Source: Candidatus Dormiibacterota bacterium
GTDB taxonomy: Bacteria; Chloroflexota; Dormibacteria; Aeolococcales; Aeolococcaceae
Assembly (NCBI GenBank): GCA_963833055.1
Contig: CAWHWM010000003.1
Coordinates: forward strand, 71,402-135,401
Direction of reading: 5' to 3'
Length of the DNA: 64,000 nucleotides
In this document: in pieces, positions 8,763 through 45,366 of the stretch
How the letters are laid out: each line of letters begins with the position of its first letter
Numbering within the stretch: position 1 is the stretch's first letter
Notes under the pieces: generated by a model
What the model was told of the DNA's origin: nothing
Databases searched by the model: none
Seen by the model: only the letters and a program-made list of their open reading frames with translations
Position numbers and translations under genes: made by a program

Positions 8763-8966
8763 ATGTGCAGAAGTATCAAGACGCTCCGTGGAGCCGATCC
8801 TCCCGCGGACGACGACGATGCTCACGCGGCTGCCCTGCAGTTCGTGCGCAAGATCAGCGGCTACCGGGCGCCGTCGAAGGCGAATCAGGCGGCCTTTGAC
8901 GCCGCCGTCCAGGACGTCACCGCGGCGACCACGCGCCTGCTCGAGGGTCTCCAGCAGCGCGTCTGA
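8763..8966 (+). CDS. DUF2277 domain-containing protein
   Basis: MCRSIKTLRGADPPADDDDAHAAALQFVRKISGY matches my recollection of the DUF2277 N-terminus. Start moved to ATG 8763 within ORF 8685-8966. Confidence 0.6.
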   Translation: MCRSIKTLRGADPPADDDDAHAAALQFVRKISGYRAPSKANQAAFDAAVQDVTAATTRLLEGLQQRV

Positions 8967-9005
8967 AGGACGGCCCTCCGCATAGCGGATAATCCACCAA
9001 TGCGA

Positions 9006-9416
9006 TCAGGCCGGGTTTGCTACTCCGACTCGCTCGCACCCATGGTGATGGTGCCGTTCACGGTGCCGCCGTCGTCGAACTCGGAGCCGCGCCGCGCGGA
9101 CGTCGCCCAGCACCACGCCACTGCCGGCCACGGTCAGCCGGGCATGCGCCACCACGTTGCCGGTCACGTTCCCGCGGACAGTCACGTTGCGTCCGTCCAC
9201 GCGCGCCTTGACGGTGGCGGAGGCCTCGACGTCGACATCACCGGAGGCGCTGATCTCACCTTCGGCCGTTCCTTCGATGTGGAGATCGCCGTCGATCGTG
9301 AGCGATCCGTTCAGGACGTCGCGCGGCCCGAGGGTCACACCCTTGGCGCCTGTCGCGCCGTTGCGGTGACCTCCACGTGGAATGGCAAGCGCCTCGATTT
9401 CAGTGATGTTCTCCAT
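9006..9416 (-). CDS. bactofilin (polymer-forming cytoskeletal protein), probable 1-nt indel near 9088 affecting the C-terminus
   Basis: Start ATG 9416 with GGAGAGG upstream. The bactofilin beta-helix repeats are present (GSLTIDGDLHIEGTAEGEISASGDVDVEASATVKARVDGRNVTVRGNVTGNV..). The in-frame tail RLRVRRRRHRERHHHH looks non-native. Shifting one base gives ..EFDDGGTVNGTITMGASESE with stop at 9021-9023, which parallels the paralogue at 10347-10946. Confidence 0.75.
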   Translation of the reverse strand: MENITEIEALAIPRGGHRNGATGAKGVTLGPRDVLNGSLTIDGDLHIEGTAEGEISASGDVDVEASATVKARVDGRNVTVRGNVTGNVVAHARLTVAGSGVVLGDVRAARLRVRRRRHRERHHHHGCERVGVANPA

Positions 9417-9504
9417 GGATGTGTCCTCTCCTTCTCGTCCGCTGCTCGGCACATATCCTACTGATCCCACGCCACCTCCGCGAGACGAATTCGCGGACAA
9501 CTCG

Positions 9505-10449
9505 GTGACGATCAGCAGCACAGCAGACACGTTTCGGCGTCTGCAACTCGAGTTCTATCGCGACGCCGCGCATCGCTACAACTCATGGGCGGGAGGCGCA
9601 AACATCCGCGCCGCGGAACGGCTCGCCGCATTCGCCGATGTGCAGCCGCACGAACGCGTGATCGACATCGGCTGTGGCACAGGCCTTGTCAGCCGTGCGC
9701 TCGGCATCGGCACCTCGACGCTCGAGCACATGGGGATCGATCTGTCCCCGGACATGATCACCGCTGCGCGCCGCCAGAGTGATGGCTCGCGCGGCATCCA
9801 GTTCACCGTCATGGATGCGCACCACCTCGTCTTCAACGACGACATGTTCGATGTCGCGATCCTCGGCCAGTCGCTCGCATATCTCGAGGATCCATGGCAG
9901 GCGTTCGCGGAGATCCGGCGTGTGCTCCGTCCCGGCGGCAGGATCGCCGTGTCCTGCCGGTGCAGGAGCCTGTCCACCCCGGCCCAGGGCGTGTTCTTCG
10001 AGCGACTCGAGCGGCTCGCCATCCGCCGCGCGCGCACGCCCGCGCATCACGCGCTGTTCGGTGAGCCGTGGGTGCTCAGCGACATGCTCGAGATGGCGGG
10101 CTTCACCGACATCCAGGGCACACAGCTGCTGGTCGGCGTGCGTGCGGCCGATGTGCACGAATGGACCGAGATGATGGAGTGGTCCGGCCCGTGGCCTCAC
10201 GCCATGATCGGGCTGCTCAGCCCCGCGGCGCGCGCCACCTTCGAGGAGGAGCTGGATCGCACGATGCACCGCCTGGGCGAAGGTGACTACGCGTTTCACG
10301 GCGCATTCACCCTCGCCACCGGGCGGCTCGGCGACCGGTCCCCTGCTCAGCCCTCTTCTGAGTCCACACCCGAGGAGACGCTCGAGGTCTCCGCGGTGCG
10401 CTCGTCGCTGTACGCATCGGATTCGGAGCCTGCGTTCTCGGCGCCATAG
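9505..10449 (+). CDS. class I SAM-dependent methyltransferase
   Basis: Motif I is ERVIDIGCGTGLVS, followed by DVAILGQSLAYLEDP and LRPGGRIAV. The start is uncertain. GTG 9505 was chosen because the ORF's 5' end (9382-) overlaps the divergent bactofilin. The 3' 103 nt overlap the convergent bactofilin gene. Confidence 0.7.
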   Translation: MTISSTADTFRRLQLEFYRDAAHRYNSWAGGANIRAAERLAAFADVQPHERVIDIGCGTGLVSRALGIGTSTLEHMGIDLSPDMITAARRQSDGSRGIQFTVMDAHHLVFNDDMFDVAILGQSLAYLEDPWQAFAEIRRVLRPGGRIAVSCRCRSLSTPAQGVFFERLERLAIRRARTPAHHALFGEPWVLSDMLEMAGFTDIQGTQLLVGVRAADVHEWTEMMEWSGPWPHAMIGLLSPAARATFEEELDRTMHRLGEGDYAFHGAFTLATGRLGDRSPAQPSSESTPEETLEVSAVRSSLYASDSEPAFSAP

Positions 10450-10946
10450 GCTCCGTGGTCGCCCTCGCCGTTGACCGCTGACCCGGTCACGTCGATGGAG
10501 CGCTCGTCGTCGTGCTCCTCCATGCGGCGTGCCGGTGGCGCGTCACCGGACGGGGTCATCGCAATCGAGGCGTTGAGGACTGCGCCTTCGTCCACGCGGA
10601 GACGACCCGCGCGGATCTCGCCGGCAAACGACGCTGTCTCGCCGAGCGACACCAGCTCGCCGGCGATCGCAGTGCCCTCGACAGCGCCCATCACGGTGAT
10701 GTCGCGAGCCGAGATCTGAGCACGCGCCGTCGCGCCTGCGTGGACGCTCACCTCGCCCGTCGCTGAGATCTCGCCGTCGACCGTGCCCTCGACGCGGACG
10801 TCACCGTCGACGGTCAGCGTGCCGACCAGCGAATCGCGTGGCCCGAGATGGACGGCGCTGGTCTGTTCAGGCGCTTCGGACGTCGCTGCACCACGACGTC
10901 CACGCGCTCTGCTCGATGTCGACGGTCCGGTTTCGCTCGTGTCCAT
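10347..10946 (-). CDS. bactofilin (polymer-forming cytoskeletal protein) with acidic C-terminal tail
   Basis: MDTSETG start at 10946. Bactofilin core: LVGTLTVDGDVRVEGTVDGEISATGEVSVHAGATARAQISARDITVMGAVEGTAIAGELVSLGETASFAGEIRAGRLRVDEGAVLNASIAM. Confidence 0.8.
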   Translation of the reverse strand: MDTSETGPSTSSRARGRRGAATSEAPEQTSAVHLGPRDSLVGTLTVDGDVRVEGTVDGEISATGEVSVHAGATARAQISARDITVMGAVEGTAIAGELVSLGETASFAGEIRAGRLRVDEGAVLNASIAMTPSGDAPPARRMEEHDDERSIDVTGSAVNGEGDHGAYGAENAGSESDAYSDERTAETSSVSSGVDSEEG

Positions 10947-11059
10947 GGCGGCTCCTTCGCTACGGCTCGGCGGCTGCGGTCGCACCTATCGTACGGGTCC
11001 GTCCGCGCAGCCGAGTCAGGCGTCCGGGTTACGAACTGCGGAAGGTTTTCGGGCTCGAC

Positions 11060-12115
11060 TCAGACCACAAGATCGCGGCTGAAGTCGGCCGTTGACGCGA
11101 CTCCGGCAAGGCCCATCGCGTGTTCGAGCTCGTCGCGGTACCCGTCGATCACTCGCTGCACGCCCGTCGCACCCTCGGCCGCCAGACCCCACAGAATCGG
11201 GCGTCCAACCATCGTCGCGGTGGCCCCGAGGGCAAGCGCCACGAAGACGTCCGTGCCGCTGACGATGCCGCCGTCCACCAGCACCGGTGCGCGGCCCTCG
11301 ACAGCGGCAACGATCTCCGGGAGCGCGACCGCTGACGCGATTGCGCGGTCGAGCTGCCGTCCACCGTGGTTGGAAACGGCCACACATGCTGCCCCGGCGT
11401 CGAGGCACGCCACCGCGTCGTCAGCGCGAAGCACCCCCTTGACGATCACGGGCAGCCCGCTGATATCGCGCAGCCAGGCGATCGTGTCGAGATTGATCGC
11501 CGCGTCCTGCTCCATCCCGGCAGTGATCTCGTCCACCGACGCTCCAGGTGGAAGGTGCGTGCCGGCGTTGACGAGATGCTGCTCCCTGCTGACGGGGGCG
11601 AAGTGTCCGCGCCGCTTGAAGCCGATGTATGGCAGATCCACGGTGAGGACGAGCGCTGTGGCGCCAAGGCCGGCGGCGCGGCGGACCAGCCCATCGGTGA
11701 TCCGGTGCTCGCGGACGACATACACCTGGTACCACCAGGGGCCTGTGAGCTCTGCGGCGATCTCCTCGAGGAGCCGGGTTGCCCGAGTGGTGACCACCAT
11801 GAGACCGCCGGCGGCGCTCACGCCACGTGCGGTCTCGACCTCGCCGTCCGGGTGCGCGACCTGGTGATACGCGGTGGGCGCGACGATGACGGGCTGGGTG
11901 AGGTGCACCCCCAGAACGTCAGTGGTCAGATCGGGGCTGGTCACACCGCGAAGCGCGCGCGGGCGCAGGCGATAGCGGCGCCACGCGGCCCGGGATTCCT
12001 CCAGGCTGAGCTCGTCGCCCGCTCCGGCCGCGATGTAGTCGAAGGCGGCCGGCGGCAGCATGGTGCGAGCGGCCATCTCGTAGTCCACGAGGATGTCGGT
12101 CAAGGACTGATCCAT
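11060..12115 (-). CDS. FMN-dependent alpha-hydroxy acid oxidase/dehydrogenase (lactate/glycolate oxidase family)
   Basis: The FMN_dh family N-terminus is AFDYIAGGAGDE-like (AAFDYIAAGAGDELSLEE). Also present: ..LPVIVKGVLRADDA.. and ..AVSNHGGRQLD... Start set at MDQSL (12115). Confidence 0.8.
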   Translation of the reverse strand: MDQSLTDILVDYEMAARTMLPPAAFDYIAAGAGDELSLEESRAAWRRYRLRPRALRGVTSPDLTTDVLGVHLTQPVIVAPTAYHQVAHPDGEVETARGVSAAGGLMVVTTRATRLLEEIAAELTGPWWYQVYVVREHRITDGLVRRAAGLGATALVLTVDLPYIGFKRRGHFAPVSREQHLVNAGTHLPPGASVDEITAGMEQDAAINLDTIAWLRDISGLPVIVKGVLRADDAVACLDAGAACVAVSNHGGRQLDRAIASAVALPEIVAAVEGRAPVLVDGGIVSGTDVFVALALGATATMVGRPILWGLAAEGATGVQRVIDGYRDELEHAMGLAGVASTADFSRDLVV

Positions 12116-33390: not shown

Positions 33391-35019
33391 ATGACAGAGC
33401 GAATCAATCCCCTTCCCGAGCGCCAATCAGCTGTGCAGCAAGACATCGAAGCATCCACGGCATCACAAGCGCCTGCTGCGCCTCGCTCGATCAGCCTGCT
33501 GTCCGCTGAGCCTTCAGTCCGCGAGGGATCACACCGGCGGGATGATCGTTCCTTTGCATCCGACCTGAACCTCGACAAGATCATCGCGACCATCGCGGGC
33601 TCGCGCGAAGAGACCGAATTCATCGCGACGCTGTTCTACCGGCCGGTCGACGACGTCGACACGGTGGGCTATCGCCACGAGGTCTTTCGTGACCTGGAGG
33701 ATCCGGCGCTTCTCGAGCACATCCAGCAGTTTGCGGACGCGATGCGATTGGTTCGCACACACATGCGCCAATCCGCCGGAATGCAGTACCAATATCAGCG
33801 CGAGGGGTGGTTCCTCGACGCGGCTTCCAGCTACTGCGACGCGGTCCAGGCTCTTGCGGAGAGCCTCGATGCGGCGGTCCTCGAATCCCGTGCCCTTCGA
33901 GCCTTCCACGCCTTTCTGGTCGACTACGTCGCTTCGGCCGATTTCGTCGCGCTGGTCGCGGAGACAAAGGAGCGGAAACGGCAGTTGGAGCAGATTCGCT
34001 ATTGCACGCGAATTCGCGGAGGCCGCGTCGACGTCAGCCGCTACGAGGGACAGGCGGACTACAGCGCTGACGTCATGGAGCTCTTCGATCGTTTCAAGCA
34101 GGGCGCCGTCAAGGATTACCGCATCAACTATCGCCTGGCGCCCGGGATGAATCCCGTCGCCGCACAGGTCCTGGAACTGGTTGCACGCCTGTTTCCTGAC
34201 GAGTTCCTGGCGCTTGATGAGTACTGTCATGCGCACGCGGATTTCTTCGATCCGACGGTGCGCCGCTTCGAGCGCGAGATCCACTTCTACCTCGCATATC
34301 TCGACTACATCCGGCCGCTGCGCGCGGCGGGACTCGACTTCTGCTATCCGCACGTCGCACAGAGCTCGAAGGCGATCTCCGCCACCGAGACGTTCGACCT
34401 CGCGCTCGCTCGGAAACTCGTGTCGGAACGCAGGCCCATCGTGCGCAACGATTTCCGCATGGATGGGCCGGAGCGCATCTTCGTGATCTCCGGACCCAAC
34501 CAGGGTGGAAAGACAACGTTTGCCCGCACCTTCGGTCAGGTCCACCACCTGGCAAGCATCGGTTGTCTCGTGCCTGGGACCGCGGCGCGCCTGTTCTTCT
34601 ACGACCGGCTGTTCGCGCACTTCGAGCGAAACGAGAACCTCACCAACCTCCGTGGCAAGCTCGAGGACGACCTGATCCGGATCCGTGAGGTGCTGCAATC
34701 GGCAACCGCCAACAGCATCGTGATCATGAACGAGATCTTCACCTCGACCACGCTGAGCGATGCGCGGTTTCTCGGCGAGAAGATCCTGCGACAGATCATG
34801 CAACTCGACGTTTTGTGCGTCTATGTCACCTTTGTCGACGAGCTTGCCTCACTCGGTGAGTCAATCGTCAGCCTGGTCAGCACGATCGTCCCCGAGAACC
34901 CTGTCGAGCGCACCTACAAGGTCACTCGAGGGCCGGCAGACGGGCTCGCCTATGCGCTCGCCATCGCGGAGAAGCACAACCTCACCTACGATCGTCTCCG
35001 GCGAAGGGTCGGTACGTGA
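33391..35019 (+). CDS. MutS-related ATPase (MutS domain V-like only; no mismatch-binding or Smr domain seen)
   Basis: Walker A is VISGPNQGGKTTFARTFGQV. A Walker B-like IVIMNEIFTSTT has Asn where canonical MutS has Asp. ..YVTFVDELA.. is also present. The N-terminal ~330 aa is helical and unassigned. The stop overlaps the next gene's GTG (GTGA at 35016-35019). Confidence 0.75.
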   Translation: MTERINPLPERQSAVQQDIEASTASQAPAAPRSISLLSAEPSVREGSHRRDDRSFASDLNLDKIIATIAGSREETEFIATLFYRPVDDVDTVGYRHEVFRDLEDPALLEHIQQFADAMRLVRTHMRQSAGMQYQYQREGWFLDAASSYCDAVQALAESLDAAVLESRALRAFHAFLVDYVASADFVALVAETKERKRQLEQIRYCTRIRGGRVDVSRYEGQADYSADVMELFDRFKQGAVKDYRINYRLAPGMNPVAAQVLELVARLFPDEFLALDEYCHAHADFFDPTVRRFEREIHFYLAYLDYIRPLRAAGLDFCYPHVAQSSKAISATETFDLALARKLVSERRPIVRNDFRMDGPERIFVISGPNQGGKTTFARTFGQVHHLASIGCLVPGTAARLFFYDRLFAHFERNENLTNLRGKLEDDLIRIREVLQSATANSIVIMNEIFTSTTLSDARFLGEKILRQIMQLDVLCVYVTFVDELASLGESIVSLVSTIVPENPVERTYKVTRGPADGLAYALAIAEKHNLTYDRLRRRVGT

Positions 35020-36574
35020 AGACCCATCTGCTGTACGAAGACCAGGACTTCGACTTCGGGGCCGAGTTGCCGCCGAATCACGCGGACCTGGTGCAGGATC
35101 TCGAGCTCACGACGTTGCTCGAGGCAATGGCGAACGGCGACCGGTTTCTGCTCGATGTGTCCAGGCGTGTCGTCCTTGCGAGTCTCGACGACCCCCAGGC
35201 CATCGTGTACCGCCAGCAGGTCCTCGTGGACTGCATCGCCTACCCGGAGGTGATCCGGGAGATGTACGAGATTGCTGTCGGGGCGCTGGAGGACAAGCGC
35301 GGAATCTGGGGATACAACATTCACTATCCGTCGTCCATCCTCTCGGGAGCCGTCAACCAGCTCGAGACAGCGTTCGTCCGCCTCAAGCAGCTGCGCAATG
35401 TCGCCGATGACCATGTCCAGCAGTTCCGCTCGGCCGGCATGACGACGCTGTTGCACACGCTGCAGCGCGACCTTGACGACGAGTATTTCCGATCTGTGGC
35501 GCTCCACCTGAAACAGCTGCGATTTCGCGACGGGCATCTGGTCAGCGCGGAGTTGGATCGTGACAACACCGGACGTGTCTTCGTGCTCCGTTCCCCGGGG
35601 GCCGGCCGGCGGAGCTTGAAAGAGCGGCTTGGCATCGGTCCTCGAACGGTCCACACCTTCACCATCGCGCCTCGTGATGACGCCGGCTCCGCAGCGCTCG
35701 GAGAGATCATCAGTCACGGCATCGACCTCGTGGCCAATGCCGCGGCGCAATCCGCCGACCACATCTGGAGCTACATAACGACGCTCCGTGCGGAGCTGGG
35801 CTTCTATGTGAGCTGTCTCAACCTCTGGGATCGGCTCCTGCAACGAGGGCTGCCGACATCGTTCCCGGAGCCGGTCTCATGGAATGGGCGTGTGTCACCA
35901 CGTCCGGCCTGCGCGAGATCTGCCTGGCGCTCCGTTCGCAGGACGAGGTCGTCGGCAACGATGTCGATGCCGACGACAGGCCACTGACCATCATCACCGG
36001 AGCGAACTCCGCAGGAAAGACGACGTTCCTCCGCAGCGTCGGTCTCGCGCAGCTCATGATGCAGTGCGGCATGTACGTGGGCGCCGGCTCGTATCGCGCG
36101 AGCGTCTGCGCCGGGTTGTTCACGCACTTCAGCCGGGAGGAGGACGCCACCATGGTCAGCGGGCGCCTCGATGAGGAGTTGCGCCGGATGAGTGTCATCG
36201 CCGATCACATCGGTCCGCACTGCCTGATCCTCTTCAACGAATCGTTCGCGGCAACCAACGAGCGTGAAGGCTCTGAAATCGGGCGTCAGGTCGTGACCGC
36301 GCTGCTCGAGGCCGATATCACCGTGTTCTTCGTCACCCATCAGTTCGATTTCGCCGACGGATTCCGCGCGCAACGCGGAGCCTCCACCCTTTTCCTCAGA
36401 GCTGAACGTCAGACGGAGGGTCGGCGCAACTACAAGCTCGCCGCGGCGGCTCCGCTTCCGACGAGCTTTGGCGAGGACGTCTACCACCGGCTCGGCGGAT
36501 GGCTGGACGTCGACGATCAGAACGCGCCGTCGGCGCCGTCCACGGAAGATCGCGCGGGTGCGGCCGCGCGGTGA
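35016..36574 (+). pseudogene. second MutS-related ATPase (paralogue of 33391-35019), one apparent frameshift near 35880
   Basis: ORF 35016-35987 encodes the helical N-terminal region. ORF 35879-36574, in another frame, encodes Walker A IITGANSAGKTTFLRSVGLAQLMMQ, LILFNESFAATN and FFVTHQFD. Confidence 0.7.
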
Positions 36575-36611
36575 CCGCGGTCAGTCCTGCGCCGGCAATG
36601 ACAGGGCGCAC

Positions 36612-37603
36612 GTGACGGACGGGACCCGGGCTCGCTCGTATACCACTGGATCGGTCGTTTCCCGCGACGGAACGACGATCAGCTATCGCCAATTCGGCAG
36701 AGGACCCGGCATCGTGGCGGTGCACGGCGGAGCGCAGGCGGCGCAGAACTTGACCAGGCTCGCCGAGTCGTTGTCCGACTTCACGGTGTACGTACCCGAT
36801 CGCCGCGGACGCGGACGCAGCGGCCCCCCCGGGGAGCACTACAGCCTGCAGTCCGAGTGCGAGGACCTGGACGCGATTCTCTCCGCCACTGGATCGCACA
36901 ACGTTTTCGGCCTGAGCTCGGGAGCGATCATCTCGCTGCAAGCAGCGCTGACCCTTCCTGCGATACGCAAGGTCGCGCTCTACGAACCGCCGCTGTCGAT
37001 CAACCACTCGACACCGATCAACTGGGTGCATCGGTATGACCGTGAGGTTGCGGCGGGCAAGCTCGGATCTGCGATCGTGACTGCCCTACGAGGAACGCAG
37101 TCGGCGCCCCCGTTCTTCCAATTGGCTCCGCGCATCGTGATCGACCCGATCCTGAATGCGGCGACGCGCATCGACACAGGCAACCGTCGGATCGGCGATG
37201 CGACCGGGCCAGCACCTCCACGCGGCCGCGTGATGCGGATCGTGTTGTGGCCCATGCGGCGTGCAAACCGAAGGAACACAGCCGCGGCAGATCGGATGCG
37301 AATCACGACGATGTGCCGCTCAAGGCGCTCGTTCCCACCATGCACTACGACGCGCAACTCGTCATCGAAAGTGAGGGATCGCTGGCGTCGTTCCGCGGCG
37401 TCTCCGCCGAGGTGCTCCTGCTGGGTGGCGCAAGGAGCGCGAGCTATCTCAAGAAATCCCTGTACGGGCTCGAACATGTCCTCCCGCACGTCCAGCGTAC
37501 GGAGTTTCCGGGAGTCGGTCACCTTGCCGCCGACAACAGCGGAAAGCCGGAGATGGTGGCCGGGGAGCTGCGCCGCTTCTTCACCGATCGCGCAGCCGGC
37601 TGA
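36612..37603 (+). pseudogene. alpha/beta hydrolase, at least one apparent frameshift between about 37150 and 37300
   Basis: ORF 36468- contains IVAVHGGAQAAQN and the nucleophile elbow FGLSSGA. The C-terminal part ..LLLGGARSASYL...FPGVGHLAADNSG (catalytic His context) is in ORF 37247-37603. Start guessed at GTG 36612. Confidence 0.65.
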
Positions 37604-37653
37604 GGAGCGCGAAGCAATCGGCGGGACCGTGCGCCGGGCGCATCCCCGGCCCG

Positions 37654-37881
37654 TTACGCGGGCCGGCGCTCGAGGCCGGCGACCAAGCGGATTCCCGTCT
37701 TTGTGCCCTCGGCGTACAACTCCCCGCCACACGAGCACATGACCTGCCAGAGCGAGCCTGCCTTGCCGTCCACCCGTGTCCTGAGCTCATCCGTCCAGTC
37801 GCGCCCGCACCGGACGCATGTGATCTTTGCCAACCGTTCCGCCACTCCCATATAGGCCAACATATCGCAAGTGGATTTCAT
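37654..37881 (-). CDS. small hypothetical protein with CxxC...CxC zinc-ribbon-like pattern
   Basis: A 75-aa ORF with good third-position G/C bias, containing ITCVRCGRDW...VMCSCGGELY. No family recognised. The start may be an internal Met. Confidence 0.4.
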   Translation of the reverse strand: MKSTCDMLAYMGVAERLAKITCVRCGRDWTDELRTRVDGKAGSLWQVMCSCGGELYAEGTKTGIRLVAGLERRPA

Positions 37882-38109
37882 TATAGCCTGGCTATCAGTT
37901 TAGCAGGCAGCGCGGTTGACGTGGGCGGTCCCCTTCACGCGATCGTCACGGGACTATGCGAAGCGCCGTGAGAACACGGCCAACAGCCTGATTGCGAGTT
38001 GTAGGGCCGTTCACGAATTACGGGAGTCACTGGTGCGATTGCGGTCACCCCGTCCTACAACGCAGCCTCGGTCGGATGAGTCGATCCGTAGACGGGGCTC
38101 AGCCGTGCG

Positions 38110-39083
38110 TTGCGCGCGGCGATCTTTCTCGGACCGATCCTTGCGTCGCTGGTGATCGCGATACTGATCAGCCACCTCCTGCCACAAGCAACGGGCCCCT
38201 TCACCGCCGTCTTCTGGATCATCGTCGTCGCCGTCGGATCGCTCCTGACGCTGGTCGTCTTCGAGCGCGCCGCGCGCCGCCTGCTCCCGCTTGCGGCTCT
38301 GTTGAACGTCTCACTCCTGTTTCCAGACAAGGCGCAGGCTCGCTTCGCGGTCGCCCGCAGGACCGGCAGTCCGCGGCAACTCCAGGAGCAGCTTGTCGAT
38401 GCCCGTGCGAGCGGTCGCACGGACGACGCTCAAGGCATGCAATCGGTCATCGAGCTTGTGCTCGCGCTGAGCGTCCACGACAAGGCGACCCGCGGCCATT
38501 CCGAGCGCGTGCGGGTCTTCGCCGACCTCATCGCTGACGAGCTGAAGATCGATGCTGCTGGGCAGGCTCGGTTGCGCTGGGCGGCGCTGCTGCACGACGT
38601 GGGCAAGCTCGAGGTGCCGGTCACCCTGCTCAACAAGCCGAGCGCGCCGGATGCAGGGGAATGGAAGGTGCTGCATCGCCATCCCGAGGAAGGGGCACGG
38701 CTCGTGGCGCCGTTGCTGCCATGGCTCGGTGAGTGGGGCAGAGCGGTTGTGGAGCACCACGAGCGCTACGACGGCACCGGATATCCCCATCAGCTCAAGG
38801 GTCACCAGATATCCCTTGCGGCACGGATCGTGGCCGTCGCCGACGTCTACGAGGTGATGACCGCTCCGCGTCCATACAAGCGCGCGATGAGCATCGCGGC
38901 TGCGCGCCGGAGCTCTTTCGGGTTGCGGGCACGCAGTTCGATCCGATGGTGGTTCGAGCGTTCCTGAACATCTTCGTCGGACGCCTGTGGCGGACCATCG
39001 GCTTTGGCGCGTGGGTCGGACAGATCCCGGCGATCAGCCGGCTGTGGGCCAAGCCGGACGCAGTAGGGGCACAGGCGCGTTGA
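38110..39083 (+). pseudogene. membrane-associated HD-GYP domain phosphodiesterase, one apparent frameshift near 38908
   Basis: N-terminal TM helices are followed by HSERVRVFA, AALLHDVGK and HHERYDGTGYP. The conserved end ..ELFRVAGTQFDPMVVRAFLNIF.. is in ORF 38733-39083. TTG start at 38110 is tentative. Confidence 0.75.
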
Positions 39084-39610
39084 GCGCCACCACCGCGACC
39101 GTTCTGACGATCGGTGCGTTGGGAACTCCGGTGCCGGCACCCACGGCGACAGGGCTCCTGACAGTCCAGCGTGCCGCATCGCACGCGACTGCTCCTCCGA
39201 GGTCACTGCCAAGGCGACCTGTTGTCCCGACCAGTCCTGCATCCGCCAAGGTGCGGCTCGACGACAGCCGGTGGCTGCCCGCCACACCCGAAGCCCGCCC
39301 CACCTCCAAAGCCGCCGAAACCGGGACCACCGCCACCCCCCAAGCCAGGACCGCCGCCGCCACCGAAACCCACGCCGCCGCCTCCTCCACCCGCTCCGTG
39401 GAGTTGCGCGACCTGTACGAACACGTCGCCGACATGCACCAATCACTGCACCAATAACAACCTCTTTTGGTGCACCACCTACTGCCTGGGCAACAACAAC
39501 TGGGCTTGCACGTCGCACTGCTTCGGCAACAACAACCACGCATGCCTCACGTACTGCCTCGGCCAGAACAACTCGCGCTGCCAGAGCAACTGCCGTGCTG
39601 CCGGACCTCT
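39080..39610 (+). CDS. hypothetical low-complexity (Ala/Thr/Pro-rich) protein ending in a Cys/Asn-rich 12-residue tandem repeat; frame changes needed, boundaries uncertain
   Basis: A possible TTG start overlaps the HD-GYP stop (TTGA at 39080-39083). Frame 2 has the best codon bias from 39080 to about 39400 (SATTATVLTIGALGTPVPAPTATG...TPEARPTSKAAETGTTATPQARTAAATETHAAASS). Frame 0 has nearly 100% G/C at third positions from 39405 to 39593 (the Cys/Asn repeats). It could instead be a C-terminal extension of the HD-GYP protein. Confidence 0.35.
39405..39593 (+). repeat. coding tandem repeat, 36-nt / 12-aa period: C-x3-C-x-G-N-N-N-x-x (five units plus a degenerate first unit)
   Basis: TGC codons occur at exactly 39435, 39471, 39507, 39543 and 39579. 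The units are CTNHCTNNNLFW / CTTYCLGNNNWA / CTSHCFGNNNHA / CLTYCLGQNNSR / CQSNC, preceded by CATCTNTSPT. Confidence 0.8.
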
Positions 39611-39748
39611 CATCGATGCCGTGCCCGCGAACGGCCAACGAACTGCGGCCTCTGTTGCCCCGCGGATGGCGTCACTCAGCGATTGGCCTCGAACTTCCGG
39701 CGCAGTTTCCGACGAACGGCCGGGCCTGCGCCACGCGACTGCACGATC

Positions 39749-40138
39749 GTGATCAACGCCCTCGGCTTGCGCGATCGGCTCCGCAAAAAGGTCGCGCCGC
39801 CACTTCCCAGCGGCATCGCCTGCGTGACCCGCGGATGCTCGAGCACGGACGCGACCCAATGCGAATACCGCGACCGTTATGGGACCCGCTGTGACCTCGC
39901 GGGCTGCTCGATTCACACCGTGACCCGCGGCGACAACTCCTACTGCCGTCGTCACGCGAGCATCGTCGACGCGACCGCTGCACCGGACGGGTATCCGCGG
40001 GTTGCCCCCCGTCTGCATGAGCGCGGCCCCTCCCTGGTGAATTGGGTGGCGAGCGACCTTGATGCCGAGGTTCGCGCCCTGCTCAACGGTCGCCTTCACC
40101 GCGCGGAGAGCGTGGTCGCTGCGGAGAGGTGCATCTGA
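39749..40138 (+). CDS. hypothetical Cys-rich (zinc-ribbon-like) protein
   Basis: The GTG 39749 start is tentative. IACVTRGCSSTDATQCEYRDRYGTRCDLAGCSIHTVTRGDNSYCRRH has 7 Cys plus His. Codon bias is good. No family recognised. Confidence 0.4.
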   Translation: MINALGLRDRLRKKVAPPLPSGIACVTRGCSSTDATQCEYRDRYGTRCDLAGCSIHTVTRGDNSYCRRHASIVDATAAPDGYPRVAPRLHERGPSLVNWVASDLDAEVRALLNGRLHRAESVVAAERCI

Positions 40139-40794
40139 TCCGATATCACAACCGCCACGAACGATGGGAGCGGGGCTGGCGCATCGTCGATCACACCGGC
40201 CTCGTGCTCAAGGTGACCATCTACGTCGACAACAGTGGTGACGACGCAGTGATTCACGTTTCAGTCGGCGACGCCCTGGTCGCCGCCGTTCCTCCCTGGA
40301 TCGCCGACCGGCGAGCAGGCGAGGCTGTCGGGGGAACCATCGACATCGCCCGGCGCCAACCGTTCAACGAGTCGCTCGTCGCCGCCATCGCATCGGGGAT
40401 CGCCCAGAGGCGCTTGTCCGGCCCTTTTGACGCGCCCACGCAGGGCACGACTGCTAACTCGTCGAGCCCGCAGGTGATCGCGGCTATCAAGCGATCCGTG
40501 CGCTTCTGTTACCGGAGAACAACCGACTGTTGGTACGAGTCGGGAGGTGCCGGGCCTAGTCTGCTCGGGTGGCTATCGCGCACCCCCAGATCCGTGCCGC
40601 GAGCACTCGAGTCCATGGCACCCCAGCTCCTCGTTGGGTCCGCGCCGTCTACGTGGGCTTGGCAGTGCTCCTCGCTGCATCTCTTGTCTCCCTGCTCGTG
40701 CGCAGCCCGACCCAGTCGATCCCGCTCCTCGATGGATGGGGGGTCGCAGCGTTCGAGCTCGTGGCCAGTTCGCTGTGCATCTGGCGCGCGCTGA
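40129..40794 (+). CDS. hypothetical protein (may be the continuation of 39749-40138); true 3' end probably near 40560
   Basis: It overlaps the previous ORF by 10 nt in another frame. Codon bias is good to about 40540 and then decays. Beyond 40569 it overlaps the GGDEF-EAL gene, so the annotated end is not trusted. Confidence 0.3.
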   Translation: MHLIRYHNRHERWERGWRIVDHTGLVLKVTIYVDNSGDDAVIHVSVGDALVAAVPPWIADRRAGEAVGGTIDIARRQPFNESLVAAIASGIAQRRLSGPFDAPTQGTTANSSSPQVIAAIKRSVRFCYRRTTDCWYESGGAGPSLLGWLSRTPRSVPRALESMAPQLLVGSAPSTWAWQCSSLHLLSPCSCAARPSRSRSSMDGGSQRSSSWPVRCASGAR

Positions 40795-42892
40795 CGTCGC
40801 GCCGGCGAACGGTGCCGTTGCTGCTCGGTTTCGGCATCCTCGCCTGGACGATCGGCGACGCCGTCCTCGCCGCGGAATCGGCCGGCGGCGCGACACCTCC
40901 CGTTCCCTCATTCGCTGATCTCTTCTATCTCTGCTTCTACCCGCTCGTGTATGTCGCGCTGGTGCTTCAGACTCGGAGAAACCTCAACGGGCTGGGTGCT
41001 GCCACCTGGCTGGATGGTGCTGTCGCCGGCCTCGGCGCAGCTGCGCTTTGCGCCTGCTTCGCGTTCACCACAGTGCTGCATTCCGTGGGCGGGAGCACGC
41101 TATCAGTCGCGACCAATCTCGCCTATCCGGTCGGCGATGGCCTGTTGCTCATCCTCGCCGTCGGCGGCACGGCCATCATCACCGGCCGGAACAAAACCCA
41201 GTGGTTGCTGATCGCGGGCGCGATTGGCGTCACCGCAGTTGGCGACACCTTCAACCTGTTCTCGGGTTCAGGAGCGCCCTCCCAGATCGGGATCATCTTC
41301 AACGGCATCGCGTGGCCGTGCGCCGTCCTGCTCATCTCGATTGCCGTATGGGTCCGCCCACTCCAGCGAAGCCCGCTTGCCAGCCGCGAAACCCCCGGAT
41401 TTCTGCTTCCGGGCCTCGGCGCCAGCGCCTCGCTCTCGATCCTCGTCGCCGACACGCTGCATCAGGTGAGCCCGGTGGCCGTGGGCCTTGCCACGGCGAC
41501 GCTGATCACCGTCGGGGTCCGTCTTGCCCTGTCAGTCCGCGACCTGCGCATCCTCACGGAAAAGCGGCACCGTCAGTCCATCACGGACGACCTGACGGGG
41601 CTGGGCAACCGCCGGCAGCTCTTCGATCTGCTCGACGCCTACTTCGCCGATTACGCTGACCCGGAGACGCCGGATGGCCAGCTATCGCTCCTGTATGTCG
41701 ACCTGGATCATTTCAAGGAGATCAACAACTCGTTCGGCCACTCCGCCGGCGATGAGTTGCTCCGGCAGTTGGGGCCGCGCCTCATCGCTCGTCTTCGGGA
41801 CACCGACGTCCTCGTGAGGGTCGGCGGCGATGAGCTTGCGGTCCTGATACCGGACACCAACCCCGAGTACGCGGCCGGTGTCGCGCAGCGGCTGATCGCC
41901 GACCTTGACCAGCCGTTCAAGCTCGACAAGATCAGCGTCCGAGTTGGCGCCAGCATCGGCATCGCGAACGCGCCGACCGATGCCACCGACAGCGCGGGAC
42001 TGCTGCGCTGCGCCGACCTGGCCATGTATCGCGCCAAGCTCGGACCGGATCCGTACGAGATCTATCGCCGCGACCTCGACGATGACGGCAACCGCCTGCG
42101 TTTGGTCGACGAGTTGCGTGACGCGATCGTCGGCGGCCACCTCGAGGTGTACTACCAACCGCAGATCGACCTCGTCACGGGCGAGCAGACCGCCATGGAG
42201 GCCTTGGTGCGGTGGCCCCATGAGCGACTTGGACTCATCCCTCCGCTCGACTTCATCCCGCTTGCGGAAGAAGCGGGGCTCATGCAATCTCTGACTGCGC
42301 TCGTGCTCGAGCGCGCGGTTGCCCAATGCGCCGCCTGGCGAGCTGCCGGACGCGTGTTGTCGGTGTCCGTCAATGTCTCGGCGACCAACCTCCTCGATTC
42401 CGGTTTCAGCCAATCGGTGATGGATCTGCTTGCCCGCTACGACATCGAACCAACCTCGCTCATCCTTGAGATCACCGAGACGACGATCATCAGCGACTTC
42501 GAGCTCTGCAAGGACGTCATCACCCAGCTTCGAGCCCTTGGACTCGGTGTCTCGATCGATGACTTCGGCGCAGGCGTCACCTCGCTTGCGTACCTCGGAA
42601 GCCTCGCCGCCAGCGAACTGAAGCTCGACCGGAGCTTCCTGTCCAATTCGCAACCGGGGACACCGAACGAAACCTCGCTCTCGTTCGCGCGACGATTGCG
42701 CTGGGACACAAGTTGAACATGCGAGTGGTGGCGGAGGGAATCGAGGATATCGGGGCCCTCAACCTGATCGCGGCGATCGGGTGCGATCTCGCGCAGGGCT
42801 ACTTCATCAGCGAACCGATGCGCGCGCGCGACCTCGCCGTCCCAGCGGCGCGATTCGAAGACCTCCCACCGTCGGAAAACGAGGTCGCGTAA
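40569..42892 (+). pseudogene. integral-membrane sensor / GGDEF / EAL protein, one apparent frameshift near 42640
   Basis: About 8 TM helices. The GGDEF domain carries a GGDEL variant (VRVGGDELAVL). EAL motifs are EALVRW, DDFGAGVTSLAYL and LKLDRSF. The conserved end ..ALVRATIALGHKLNMRVVAEGIEDIGALNLIAAIGCDLAQGYFISEPM.. lies in another frame and runs to the TAA stop at 42890-42892. Confidence 0.8.
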
Positions 42893-42981: not shown

Positions 42982-45366
42982 TCAGGGGCCTTCGTACGTG
43001 CAGGTCTGGTTCGGCAGCGGGGTCACGCCGCGATACGTGCAATTCCGCGAGGCGCCGGGCTGCGTGCCGGGGAGATAGAAGTTGCTGTCGTCGAACCCCT
43101 GGCCGGTGCTGACCGCCACAAGATCCGGTGGTTCCTGATACCAGGTGTCCGGCACGCCCTTGAGCGCCGCTGACATGTACACGTTCCAGATAGGTGCCGC
43201 ACCGCTATACCCCGAGATGACGCCGTCGAGGTGTCCACAATCCGGGTAGTCCGGGTGCGCCGGCTTGAGGCCGTACTTGGCAAGATCACTGGGGCTGAAC
43301 GGATACGTATTGTCCACCTCACCCGGTTCCACGATGTGTCCCTTGCGAATCTGCGCAGCCATGTACGCGTAGTCCTTCGGCTGCAGACAGCTCCGCTGCG
43401 CGTTGCCGACCCAGACGGCCGTGAGAAAGTCCGGCGTCCAGCCGACGGTCAGGTTGTCCATGTAGTAGTCGGCTGTGCCGGTCTTGGCACTGACCCGGCG
43501 CGGGTTCAGCGTCAGCAGTCCGTTCTTGCCGAACTCCTCACGGCGGTTGTTGTCGTTGCTCGTGATCGCATCCATGATGTACGCCACGTTGGCCGGGATC
43601 ACCTGATGGCCGGCCGCCGCGGGGTTGTAGGTCCAGACCGTCTTCCCGGTGACCTGCGCTGTGATCCGTGAGACCGGCATGGGGTTGTGCTGCACCCCCA
43701 GATCGCCGAGCGTGGCGGCACCGTCGGCAAGATCGAGCAGCGTGATGCCGCAGGTGAGCGATCCGAGCGTTGCAGCCCACTGGTACTGGGTCGGCCAGTT
43801 CACATCCTGGTCGTCGGGACCGCAGTTCTGATCGAGCGAGCTCGCGCCCATCGCCAGCTCGGTGTTGGCGATGTATTGCGTGCCCGTTGCGTACTCCGTC
43901 TTGACTGCGGGGATGTTGAACGAGTTGCCGAGACAGTCCTTGAGCTCGCACACACCATGCGTCCGGCGGTCGTCGTCGTACGGACGATACGGGGGGCTCC
44001 CGGGGATGGGAAACGGGTGAGATGGCGTCCAGGAGCGGCGTCGTCATCGTGAATTTCGTCGATGCTATCGCGGCCGTATACGTGAACAGCTTCGTGGTCG
44101 ACCCCATGTTCAGCTGGACAGCCGCCGCTTCGTTCACCTGACCGAAATATGGATCGCTGTAGTTCCACGTGCCGACCATTGCAAGGACCTCACCGTTCTG
44201 CGGATCCATGCTCACCAACGCACCGTCGCCCATGTTCTCCTTGAGGCGCTCCTGGGACACCACCTTGGTGACCGTGCTCTGTGCAAGGTCCTGGTCGGCC
44301 TGATTGATCGTGGTGTAGATCTGGTACCCGCCGGGATGGGCGTACTGCGGGAAGTTCGCGTTCAAGTAGGTCTCGAGGTAGGAGATGAAGTCGGGGTCGT
44401 CGTTGGGCTCGGACTGGGTCCACGGATGCACCACCAGCGCTTCCTTGTATGCGGCGGCCGCCTGTGCTTGCGTGATGTCACCGCTCGCGACCATCGCCTG
44501 AAGGACTGCTTTCTGCCGTGACTTCGCAAGTGGATTGATGGCGTCGTGCGCGTTGTGGATCAGTGGGTTGTAGGAGGTGGGCGATTTTGGAAGACCCGCG
44601 AGCAACGCTGCCTGCGCCAGATCCAGCTGGCTCGCAGGGATCTGGAAATACAGCTCCGCCGCAATGCCCACGCCGACCGCGTAATTGCCATAGAAGATGC
44701 GATTGACATACATGTCGAGGATCTGGTCTTTGGTGAAGTTGAGGGAGATCTCGTTGCCGAGCACGATCTCCTTGATCTTGTAATCGATGCTCTGCGGCGG
44801 ATCGGCGCCACCATAAAGGCTGATCTTCGCCAGCTGCTCGGTGATCGTCGACCCACCTTGCAGGGTGCCGTCCTGGTTCGTGACATCAGCAACGCCAACT
44901 CCACGAGACGGGCGAGATCCCAGGAACCCTCGCTGTAGAAGTCGTGGTCCTCAATCGCGACGATCGCCTCCTTGAAAAGCGGCGAGATCTGGTCGAGATC
45001 CACATGGATATGCCGGTATCCCTCGTTGTGGAAGACGTGGATCGGGCCACCCGTGAAGTCGTACACGTCCGTGTCGATCTGGGGCTCCATGTTGGTGATG
45101 GTCGCCGCATCGGGCAGCTGGCTCGAGTACGCGTTGTATCCCGCGAACGCTGCGCCGACCGTGCCCGCGCCAACGGTCGCGCACACGGTGATCGCGATGA
45201 GCACGATGCGAAGGACCCGGCTGGGTGTTCGAGGGTTTCGCAGGTGCAGATAGGCGCTCGCGCGCCGGCGGCGCAATGCTGCTCGAGCCGCGGCCCGCGC
45301 GCGGCTGTCCGGGAGAGCTCCTTCGGGGCGCCGCGCTCTGGCCTCACTCCCAGCTCTCACTGCCAC
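42982..45366 (-). pseudogene. class A penicillin-binding protein (GT51 transglycosylase + transpeptidase), two apparent frameshifts (about 44900 and 44015)
   Basis: ORF 44560-45366 gives the TM anchor and AIVAIEDHDFYSEGS. The next frame gives ..QGGSTITEQLAK.. through MGSTTKLFTY (SxxK) in ORF 43538-44764. The third frame gives ..PYDDDRRTHGVCELKDCLGNSFNIPAVK..KTGTADY.. in ORF 42982-43953. Confidence 0.85.

Follow-up and report, generated by a model that had tools for sequence, protein, structure and literature searches.

In the HD-GYP proteins described so far, the sensor is N-terminal and the HD-GYP domain is the C-terminal output (Galperin & Chou, bioRxiv 10.1101/2021.11.05.467447). None of those with an outside domain has been experimentally characterised, and the same survey of architectures has no C-terminal cysteine (Cys) module of the kind considered here (bioRxiv 10.1101/2021.11.05.467447). 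Regular Cys-containing repeats are known from insect proteins: the antifreeze protein TmAFP is built from 12-residue units (TCTxSxNCxxAx), each coil being braced internally by a Cys2–Cys8 disulfide (PMC8038014), and a midge protein is a 10-residue disulfide-braced solenoid (PMC13080227). The stretch analysed here ("the window") is 64,000 nt of a Candidatus Dormibacterota genome (assembly GCA_963833055.1, contig CAWHWM010000003.1, positions 71,402 to 135,401). One of its plus-strand genes, at 38033–39752 (GTG start, TGA stop at 39750–39752), encodes a predicted membrane-anchored HD-GYP phosphodiesterase, and by comparison with intact orthologues a Cys- and Asn-rich tandem repeat near the 3′ end is the C-terminal domain of this protein and no separate gene. 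Like the dCache-, PBPb- and CHASE2-HD-GYP proteins, it would be membrane-bound, with intact catalytic motifs and a joined domain that probably lies outside. It differs in that HD-GYP is central and the extra domain is C-terminal, past a putative third membrane segment and a Pro-rich linker. As known HD-GYP sensors are N-terminal, a C-terminal outside module would be unusual, in contrast to the general rule for these proteins.

The Cys/Asn-rich repeat is a real, translated and strongly conserved feature. The peptide originally predicted from the window alone, in frame 0 at 39405–39593, is exactly what translation gives (CATCTNTSPTCTNHCTNNNLFWCTTYCLGNNNWACTSHCFGNNNHACLTYCLGQNNSRCQSNC). It divides into CATCTNTSPT / CTNHCTNNNLFW / CTTYCLGNNNWA / CTSHCFGNNNHA / CLTYCLGQNNSR / CQSNC, that is, a CxxC cap and then five C-x3-C-x-G-N-N-N-x-x units with a period of exactly 36 nt or 12 amino acids (aa), and direct reading of the DNA places TGC codons at 39435, 39471, 39507, 39543 and 39579, as had been stated. 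The domain as delimited here (39396–39596) consists of PWS, the CxxC cap (39405–39416), TNTSPT, and repeats R1 (39435–39470), R2 (39471–39506), R3 (39507–39542), R4 (39543–39578) and R5 (39579–39596, CQSNCR). Tandem Repeats Finder reports 2.9 copies of period 36 at 39471–39573, with 71% matches; at this low DNA similarity, it is the protein that maintains the regularity, and a recent DNA duplication is not its source. Across all six frames of the window, the pattern C-x3-C-x7-C-x3-C-x7-C-x3-C occurs at one site only, and none of 100 shuffled versions contains it. The spacing of the 12 Cys is unchanged in the great majority of the homologous domains examined (72 distinct), so the repeat exceeds what chance would produce. 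In the repeat frame, G+C at the third codon position is 0.88–0.90 over 39420–39540. That frame 0 is translated, as first proposed, is borne out by the homologues, which keep the frame and differ mostly at third positions. Purifying selection is evident in the ratio of nonsynonymous to synonymous substitution rates (dN/dS) relative to the closest available sequence (contig L018, below), which is 0.08 in the repeat and 0.08 in the catalytic core, with 0.91 in the C-terminal tail.

The fusion to HD-GYP is seen in other genomes. When 185,579 species, each represented by a single genome, were scanned for the Cys pattern, 14 loci were recovered, every one of them in a metagenome-assembled genome (MAG) of Candidatus Dormibacterota. 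Such a search had been proposed along with the original prediction, and the repeat found by it is fused to HD-GYP: at 11 of the 14 loci it terminates a single open frame of 545–640 codons, which begins with the HD-GYP part. In these frames, an Arg-rich N-terminus and two strongly hydrophobic helices precede a complete HD-GYP domain, after which come another hydrophobic segment and a long linker of Pro/Thr/Ala/Ser composition. The order in intact orthologues is accordingly two transmembrane (TM) segments, HD-GYP, third hydrophobic segment, a Pro/Thr-rich linker of 70–121 aa, Cys repeat, and variable tail. Rather than lying directly downstream of an HD-GYP gene, as originally described, the repeat is the C-terminus of the same gene, intact orthologues being single open reading frames (ORFs) of 540–640 aa. 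A full-length query retrieved 3,579 HD-GYP homologues at E ≤ 1e-40, and 112 of the 119 best have a CX3C repeat near the C-terminus. In the nearest relative (P0041, 577 aa, on contig L018 from the Logan assembled sequencing runs) the gene is intact. L018 is 92.8% identical in DNA to window positions 36091–39807, which include the whole gene, and the frame-corrected window protein of 573 aa matches P0041 at 89% identity over its length and at 96% in the catalytic part.

The intact relative also settles how the region upstream of the repeat should be read. The low-complexity, Pro-rich linker or stalk is at 39137–39395 and crosses two frame breaks; its part at 39279–39395 reads PPHPKPAPPPKPPKPGPPPPPKPGPPPPPKPTPPPPPPA in frame 0. 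The Ala/Thr/Pro-rich linker of the original prediction was a wrong-frame reading, the real one being the in-frame, Pro/Lys-rich sequence (PPPPKP) also found in intact P0041. The Ala/Thr-rich alternative frame, with its high third-position G+C, results from reading CCN-rich Pro codons out of frame, and was rejected because P0041 fixes the frame. In orthologues the linker is 70–121 aa long (median 86) and consists of 28% P, 17% T, 14% A and 12% S. Beyond the repeat is a variable and probably disordered C-terminal tail (39597–39749), which is 3 to 111 aa long in orthologues and has a predicted local distance difference test (pLDDT) score below 50 in the model of an ortholog. In one subgroup of the HD-GYP proteins (L025 277–2082; L001, P0001), a hydrophobic stretch, GLLAAIVAVGVGIFATPPP, follows the Cys domain; this may serve in sorting or as a second membrane anchor, at the C-terminus. 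Some genomes have two HD-GYP/Cys-repeat paralogues (L002 and L003 in SMAG_U295, L007 and L011 in MFD09671.bin.2.25), which differ in linker type (Pro/Lys/Thr in one, rich in Ser/Thr/Gly in the other), and in L015 two HD-GYP copies are adjacent (8777–9562 and 10660–11480). Promoter and terminator scans around the window gene gave nothing informative.

By all database comparisons made, the Cys repeat is an undescribed domain family, with no known relative in Pfam, NCBIfam or the PDB. The window repeat ORF matched 0 families in Pfam-A 2025 at E ≤ 1 and 0 in NCBIfam r20 at E ≤ 0.1, no family covered the Cys repeat in scans of eight or nine diverse members at E ≤ 0.1, and a PDB sequence search with the repeat profile gave 0 matches at E ≤ 10. 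The first reading had not recognised the family, and neither these searches nor hhalign comparisons matched a described one. An exhaustive profile search of 1.84 billion representative proteins (clusters at 50% identity, E ≤ 1e-3) found just 27 clusters with the repeat, one of them probably spurious, so that the domain seems to be almost restricted to a single uncultured phylum of soil bacteria. A word-indexed protein search, which is insensitive to a low-complexity Cys motif of this kind, gave one match with a single sequence as query and five with a 29-sequence alignment. Members without HD-GYP are similar to the Dormibacterota loci only in the Cys domain itself. A literature search found nothing on Dormibacterota together with HD-GYP or with cyclic di-GMP (c-di-GMP), and the protein offers a concrete handle on c-di-GMP signalling in this group.

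The 72 distinct canonical domains have the Cys spacing C-x2-C-x6-C-x3-C-(x7-C-x3-C)x4 in common, and a unit consensus of C-T-[ST]-[YH]-C-x-G-N-N-N-x-x. Eleven of the 12 Cys columns are invariant, as are several Gly columns. Unit position 4 is His or Tyr in 88% of units, and in the HD-GYP subfamily each repeat keeps its own residue at this position (Y/H, Y, H, Y, N), while position 6 is conserved in repeats 3–5. The position-4 ladder is not conserved in the pilin-type members described below.

The enzyme part is a standard HD-GYP domain. Window ORF 38110–38967 matches Pfam HD_5 at E=3.7e-32 (111.8 bits, gathering score 27.2) and HD at E=1.4e-17 (64.5 bits, gathering score 22). The catalytic core (38467–38904) has its HD, HHE and DGTGYP motifs intact, in the form HDVGK (with the Lys that follows HD), HRHP and HHERYDGTGYP, and the same residues are invariant in 111 orthologues; the C-terminal helices of the domain and an amphipathic segment follow at 38910–39053, in frame 0. 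In Foldseek searches, the ortholog model matched 4mcw, 9rbz and 4r8z at E ~1e-7 and 30–33% identity, a structural similarity to the solved phosphodiesterases PmGH, DvhD and PA4781. With all motif residues conserved and this structural likeness, the HD-GYP part is probably an active c-di-GMP phosphodiesterase.

The Cys domain at its other end is most likely extracytoplasmic. In the window gene, the Arg-rich N-terminus, presumably cytoplasmic, is followed by a predicted TM1 (38110–38178), a short outside loop (38179–38202) and TM2 (38203–38265), with 19-residue Kyte-Doolittle means for TM1 and TM2 of 2.1–2.8 in orthologues. Net charges of +2.9 for the N-terminus and +2.8 for the region after TM2 are consistent with the positive-inside rule. 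The third hydrophobic segment, GTGALSATTATVLTIGALGTPVP, is a putative TM3 (39068–39136, frame mod 2 in the window), uncharged in 111/111 orthologues; for its best 19-residue stretch, the median Kyte-Doolittle mean is 1.61. It would span the membrane and lead the chain out of the cell. The Pro/Thr-rich linker that follows is a further point in favour of an outside position.

Other architectures point the same way. P0010 (L016 410–886) and P0015 (L022 136–594) have a Flp/Fap-type prepilin leader and a complete Cys repeat of 5–6 units, with Pfam Flp_Fap E values of 3e-6 and 5e-5 and scores of 27.3 and 23.4, below the gathering score of 32.2. Like Flp/Fap (Tad) pilins, they begin with a G/xxxxEY leader and a hydrophobic helix; nothing pilin-like is present in the window protein. 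An ordinary Flp pilin has some 50–60 aa and lacks a globular C-terminal domain, and the Cys-repeat part of these two proteins is unusually large for one. In other proteins the repeat is found behind N-in single-pass signal anchors: P0014 (L019 6001–6693), P0016 (L020 6001–6738), P0009/L017, and L028/L029. The apparent signal peptide of P0009 is counted as a signal anchor because its frame is open further upstream. P0014, P0016 and L028/L029 share a short cytoplasmic N-terminal motif, ..RLRSxRPE..LELDQIK.R... Single-pass members have one or two Cys-repeat domains; in L028/L029, a run of Gly connects one of 7 units to one of 5. A conserved basic tail is present at the end of some members, and two of the genes are convergent to a Wzy_C and extracytoplasmic function (ECF) sigma gene pair. 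Overall, the repeat is distributed as a promiscuous module would be, after a membrane anchor or export signal and with varied partners (HD-GYP, Flp-type leaders, single-pass anchors).

The fold predicted for the domain is a minimal parallel beta-solenoid, with five parallel strands at a period of 12. For the window domain with 17 homologues, AlphaFold2 gave a pLDDT of 84.7 and a predicted template modelling score (pTM) of 0.71, with five strands of four residues each at 16–19, 28–31, 40–43, 52–55 and 64–67. In a model of a full-length ortholog built from 111 sequences, the Cys domain was the best-predicted part (pLDDT 94–98), and the strands (475–478, 487–490, 499–502, 511–514 and 523–526) have a period of exactly 12. 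The strands occupy unit positions 3–6, at pLDDT 91–98. If the second Cys faces inward, positions 4 (Tyr/His) and 6 point outward.

The Cys counts suggest one disulfide per coil, within each CX3C, and six local disulfides in total. Among 111 orthologues, the number of Cys is even in 93 and exactly 12 in 74, and 92 have none outside the domain. Pairing within each CX3C and within the CxxC cap leaves local pairs only in every variant compared: cap-less domains with 10 Cys (P0025, L031), altered ends (P0014, P0016), extra units (P0015) and double domains (L028, L029). The alternative cross-unit pairing, over the x7 spacing, would strand two distant Cys.

The original prediction had drawn a formal analogy to beta-solenoids such as beetle antifreeze proteins while noting a different Cys register, and both parts of this agree with the predicted period-12 strands and with the alignment. 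TmAFP, DcAFP and DhbAFP (PDB 1EZG) also have a 12-residue unit with two Cys. They are narrow beta-solenoids filled by one disulfide per coil, as predicted here, with one flat face of short parallel strands, and they are exported. Against this, the Cys are at i, i+4 here (positions 1 and 5) and at i, i+6 in TmAFP (positions 2 and 8), and there is no Thr array. The domain considered here is moreover bacterial and joined to either a signalling enzyme or pilin leaders, and ice binding is unlikely for it. An hhalign comparison of the domain with TmAFP, using an approximate TmAFP sequence, gave a probability of 0.2%. With both register and consensus different, the domain falls outside the TmAFP family. 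If the predicted fold holds, it would be a bacterial, convergent example of the smallest known type of beta-solenoid, useful for the study of fold evolution and as a compact disulfide-stapled scaffold.

The reading favoured here, and thought fairly probable, is that the repeat is a C-terminal, outside mini beta-solenoid with a binding or sensing role, carried by a three-pass membrane HD-GYP phosphodiesterase of Candidatus Dormibacterota. The chain would start inside with the Arg-rich N-terminus, cross the membrane at TM1 and return at TM2 after a short outer loop, placing the HD-GYP domain in the cytoplasm; the third, weakly hydrophobic and uncharged segment would carry the chain outward, and the Pro/Thr-rich stalk of some 86 residues would hold the Cys domain off the membrane. 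There the CxxC cap and five 12-residue coils could stack as a minimal parallel beta-solenoid, each coil contributing one short strand, with both Cys of each CX3C inward and joined in one disulfide per coil. The Gly and the Asn triplet would form the turns, and the repeat-specific Tyr/His ladder and the position-6 residues would face outward on a flat sheet. Such a rigid solenoid, in or beyond the wall, might bind a ligand, a partner or a second copy by its Tyr/His face. As a surface-displayed binding or sensing module, the domain may respond to an envelope or external cue by tethering the phosphodiesterase, fixing its location or regulating it, possibly together with two neighbours, the GGDEF-EAL enzyme and the product of the downstream, translationally coupled gene. 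The long low-complexity stalk between module and membrane favours a binding or tethering role and makes classical transmembrane allostery less likely.

Several observations weigh against this reading. The window copy of the gene, as written, cannot encode the full protein. The third segment is only marginally hydrophobic (median 1.61), its hand-estimated insertion free energy is positive, and in AlphaFold2 models it has pLDDT below 50 and no helix; given this weakness, it is chiefly the other architectures with the repeat that support an outside location. Foldseek comparison of the domain model with the PDB and BFVD gave 0 matches. A low-complexity linker of about 86 residues is poorly suited to allosteric signalling, so direct regulation of the phosphodiesterase is doubtful, and tethering or localisation is equally possible. 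The conserved His beside Cys would also suit metal binding.

The first of these points raises the possibility, unlikely overall but the best-surviving of the alternatives, that the gene is a decaying pseudogene in this genome and the repeat a relic no longer made. Compared with L018, the window gene has 1-nt deletions near 38093, 38906, 39055 and 39254 and a 2-nt insertion near 39277, five frame-breaking indels in 1.7 kb, which is denser than in the neighbouring genes checked. These make it look split into two or three ORFs. Against decay is the dN/dS of 0.08 in both catalytic core and repeat. The correct frames are also without internal stops, and the four other indels relative to L018, all in the linker (9, 3, 3 and 3 nt), are in frame. 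Several neighbouring genes are broken as well. Relative to intact Dormibacterota orthologues, further breaks were noted near 2485, 37283, ~40130, ~42670 and 47585 and within 42982–44764 (minus strand), and the genes hit in the window include a hydrolase, the HD-GYP gene, its downstream partner, the GGDEF-EAL gene and a class A penicillin-binding protein (PBP) gene (42982–44764, minus strand). In other genomes, the HD-GYP/Cys-repeat gene is frameshifted at three loci (L011, L012, L015), each of them in a MAG with an MFD isolate name, against 0 of 6 non-MFD MAGs. Breaks in neighbouring genes and the restriction of the others to MFD-named MAGs indicate assembly error: window-wide, the pattern looks more like assembly indels than genome decay, and the five indels in this copy are more likely to be mainly of that origin. 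It is a caution that such indels can make one gene appear as two or three ORFs. Conclusions about the family as a whole are independent of which explanation is correct for this copy.

Less probable, though worth setting against the beta-solenoid reading, is a metal-binding or redox module, possibly cytoplasmic should the third hydrophobic segment not cross the membrane, in which the CX3C motifs and His/Tyr hold Cu, Zn or Fe-S, or cycle between thiol and disulfide, and report to the phosphodiesterase. The 12 invariant or near-invariant Cys and the His/Tyr at position 4 in 88% of units would fit this, as would the weak and poorly modelled third hydrophobic segment, and copper is bound by CX3C and His motifs in Sco and CuA proteins. 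Recurrent C-x3-C pairs are shared with those sites and with the twin-CX3C small Tim proteins. All these groups are helical hairpins or thioredoxin/cupredoxin folds with one or two CX3C motifs, however, where the domain considered here has five tandem units, predicted beta strands and no match to a Pfam profile. Its occurrence behind Flp-type prepilin leaders and N-in signal anchors places it in exported contexts, AlphaFold2 predicts a confident stack without metal, and the even Cys counts and the logic of local pairs fit disulfides. As the position-4 His/Tyr is not kept in pilin-type members, it is not required for the fold. The extracytoplasmic contexts and local-pair Cys pattern thus make the metal or redox idea less likely.

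A more far-reaching version of the beta-solenoid reading is that a disulfide-braced mini beta-solenoid with 12-residue coils, of a fold class until now known from insect antifreeze proteins alone, arose separately in bacteria, and that Dormibacterota carry it both on the polyproline stalk of a phosphodiesterase and on Flp-type pilins. The enzyme-borne copy would then sense contact with a surface of repetitive structure (ice, a mineral, a polysaccharide or the pili of the cell itself) and couple attachment directly to c-di-GMP turnover. This is speculative and considered improbable as a whole. Still less credit is given to an ice-, mineral- or lattice-binding module like TmAFP, serving adhesion or contact sensing. 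In its favour, the Cys domain shares a 12-residue period with TmAFP and is predicted to have the same one-sided parallel sheet (PMC8038014); it is also carried by pilin-like proteins, and the isolate names of some source MAGs begin with "palsa". There is no TxT or TCT array, however; the outward strand positions are variable or have bulky Tyr/His, profile similarity to TmAFP and Foldseek matches are lacking, and other sources include a sample labelled JX_forest and MAGs with names giving no sign of a cold origin. The weakest alternative, a stand-alone small ORF or ribosomal peptide precursor 3′ of the HD-GYP gene, appeals to the separate ORF at 39171–39752 in the window, and is ruled out by the continuous single ORFs of intact orthologues, as is the peptide-substrate idea of the original prediction, the repeat being a domain fused to an enzyme of ~570 aa with no leader/core organisation and no modifying enzymes among its neighbours in the window.

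The genes around the HD-GYP gene include a hydrolase, MutS-like genes, a GGDEF-EAL gene and the PBP. Immediately downstream (39749–40800, plus strand) is a partner gene whose product of ~220 aa has an N-terminal Cys cluster; its frame is broken near 40130, and it has no Pfam match. In the window as in six other loci, this conserved gene starts with a GTG that shares nucleotides with the stop codon of HD-GYP (GTGA). The gene is directly 3′ of HD-GYP in L002, L004, L005, L006, L009 and L011 (the intact L002 copy is at 10360–11040), and from this position in six Dormibacterota loci it is probably an operon partner. The next gene (40458–42892, plus strand, frame break near 42670) encodes a multi-TM GGDEF-EAL protein (Pfam GGDEF E=6e-38, EAL E=2e-49), and a GGDEF-EAL gene adjoins the HD-GYP gene directly in two palsa MAGs (L009 6037–8436, L010 5940–8339). 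Both products are candidate functional partners of the HD-GYP protein. The HD-GYP and GGDEF-EAL genes make up a small c-di-GMP gene cluster.

On the upstream side there are two genes for MutS domain V-like ATPases (33391–35019 and 35879–36574, plus strand). Between the hydrolase and the HD-GYP gene is a small Cys-containing, zinc-ribbon-like ORF on the minus strand (37654–37881), and a small minus-strand gene is also called at the corresponding place in L018 (1560–1757).

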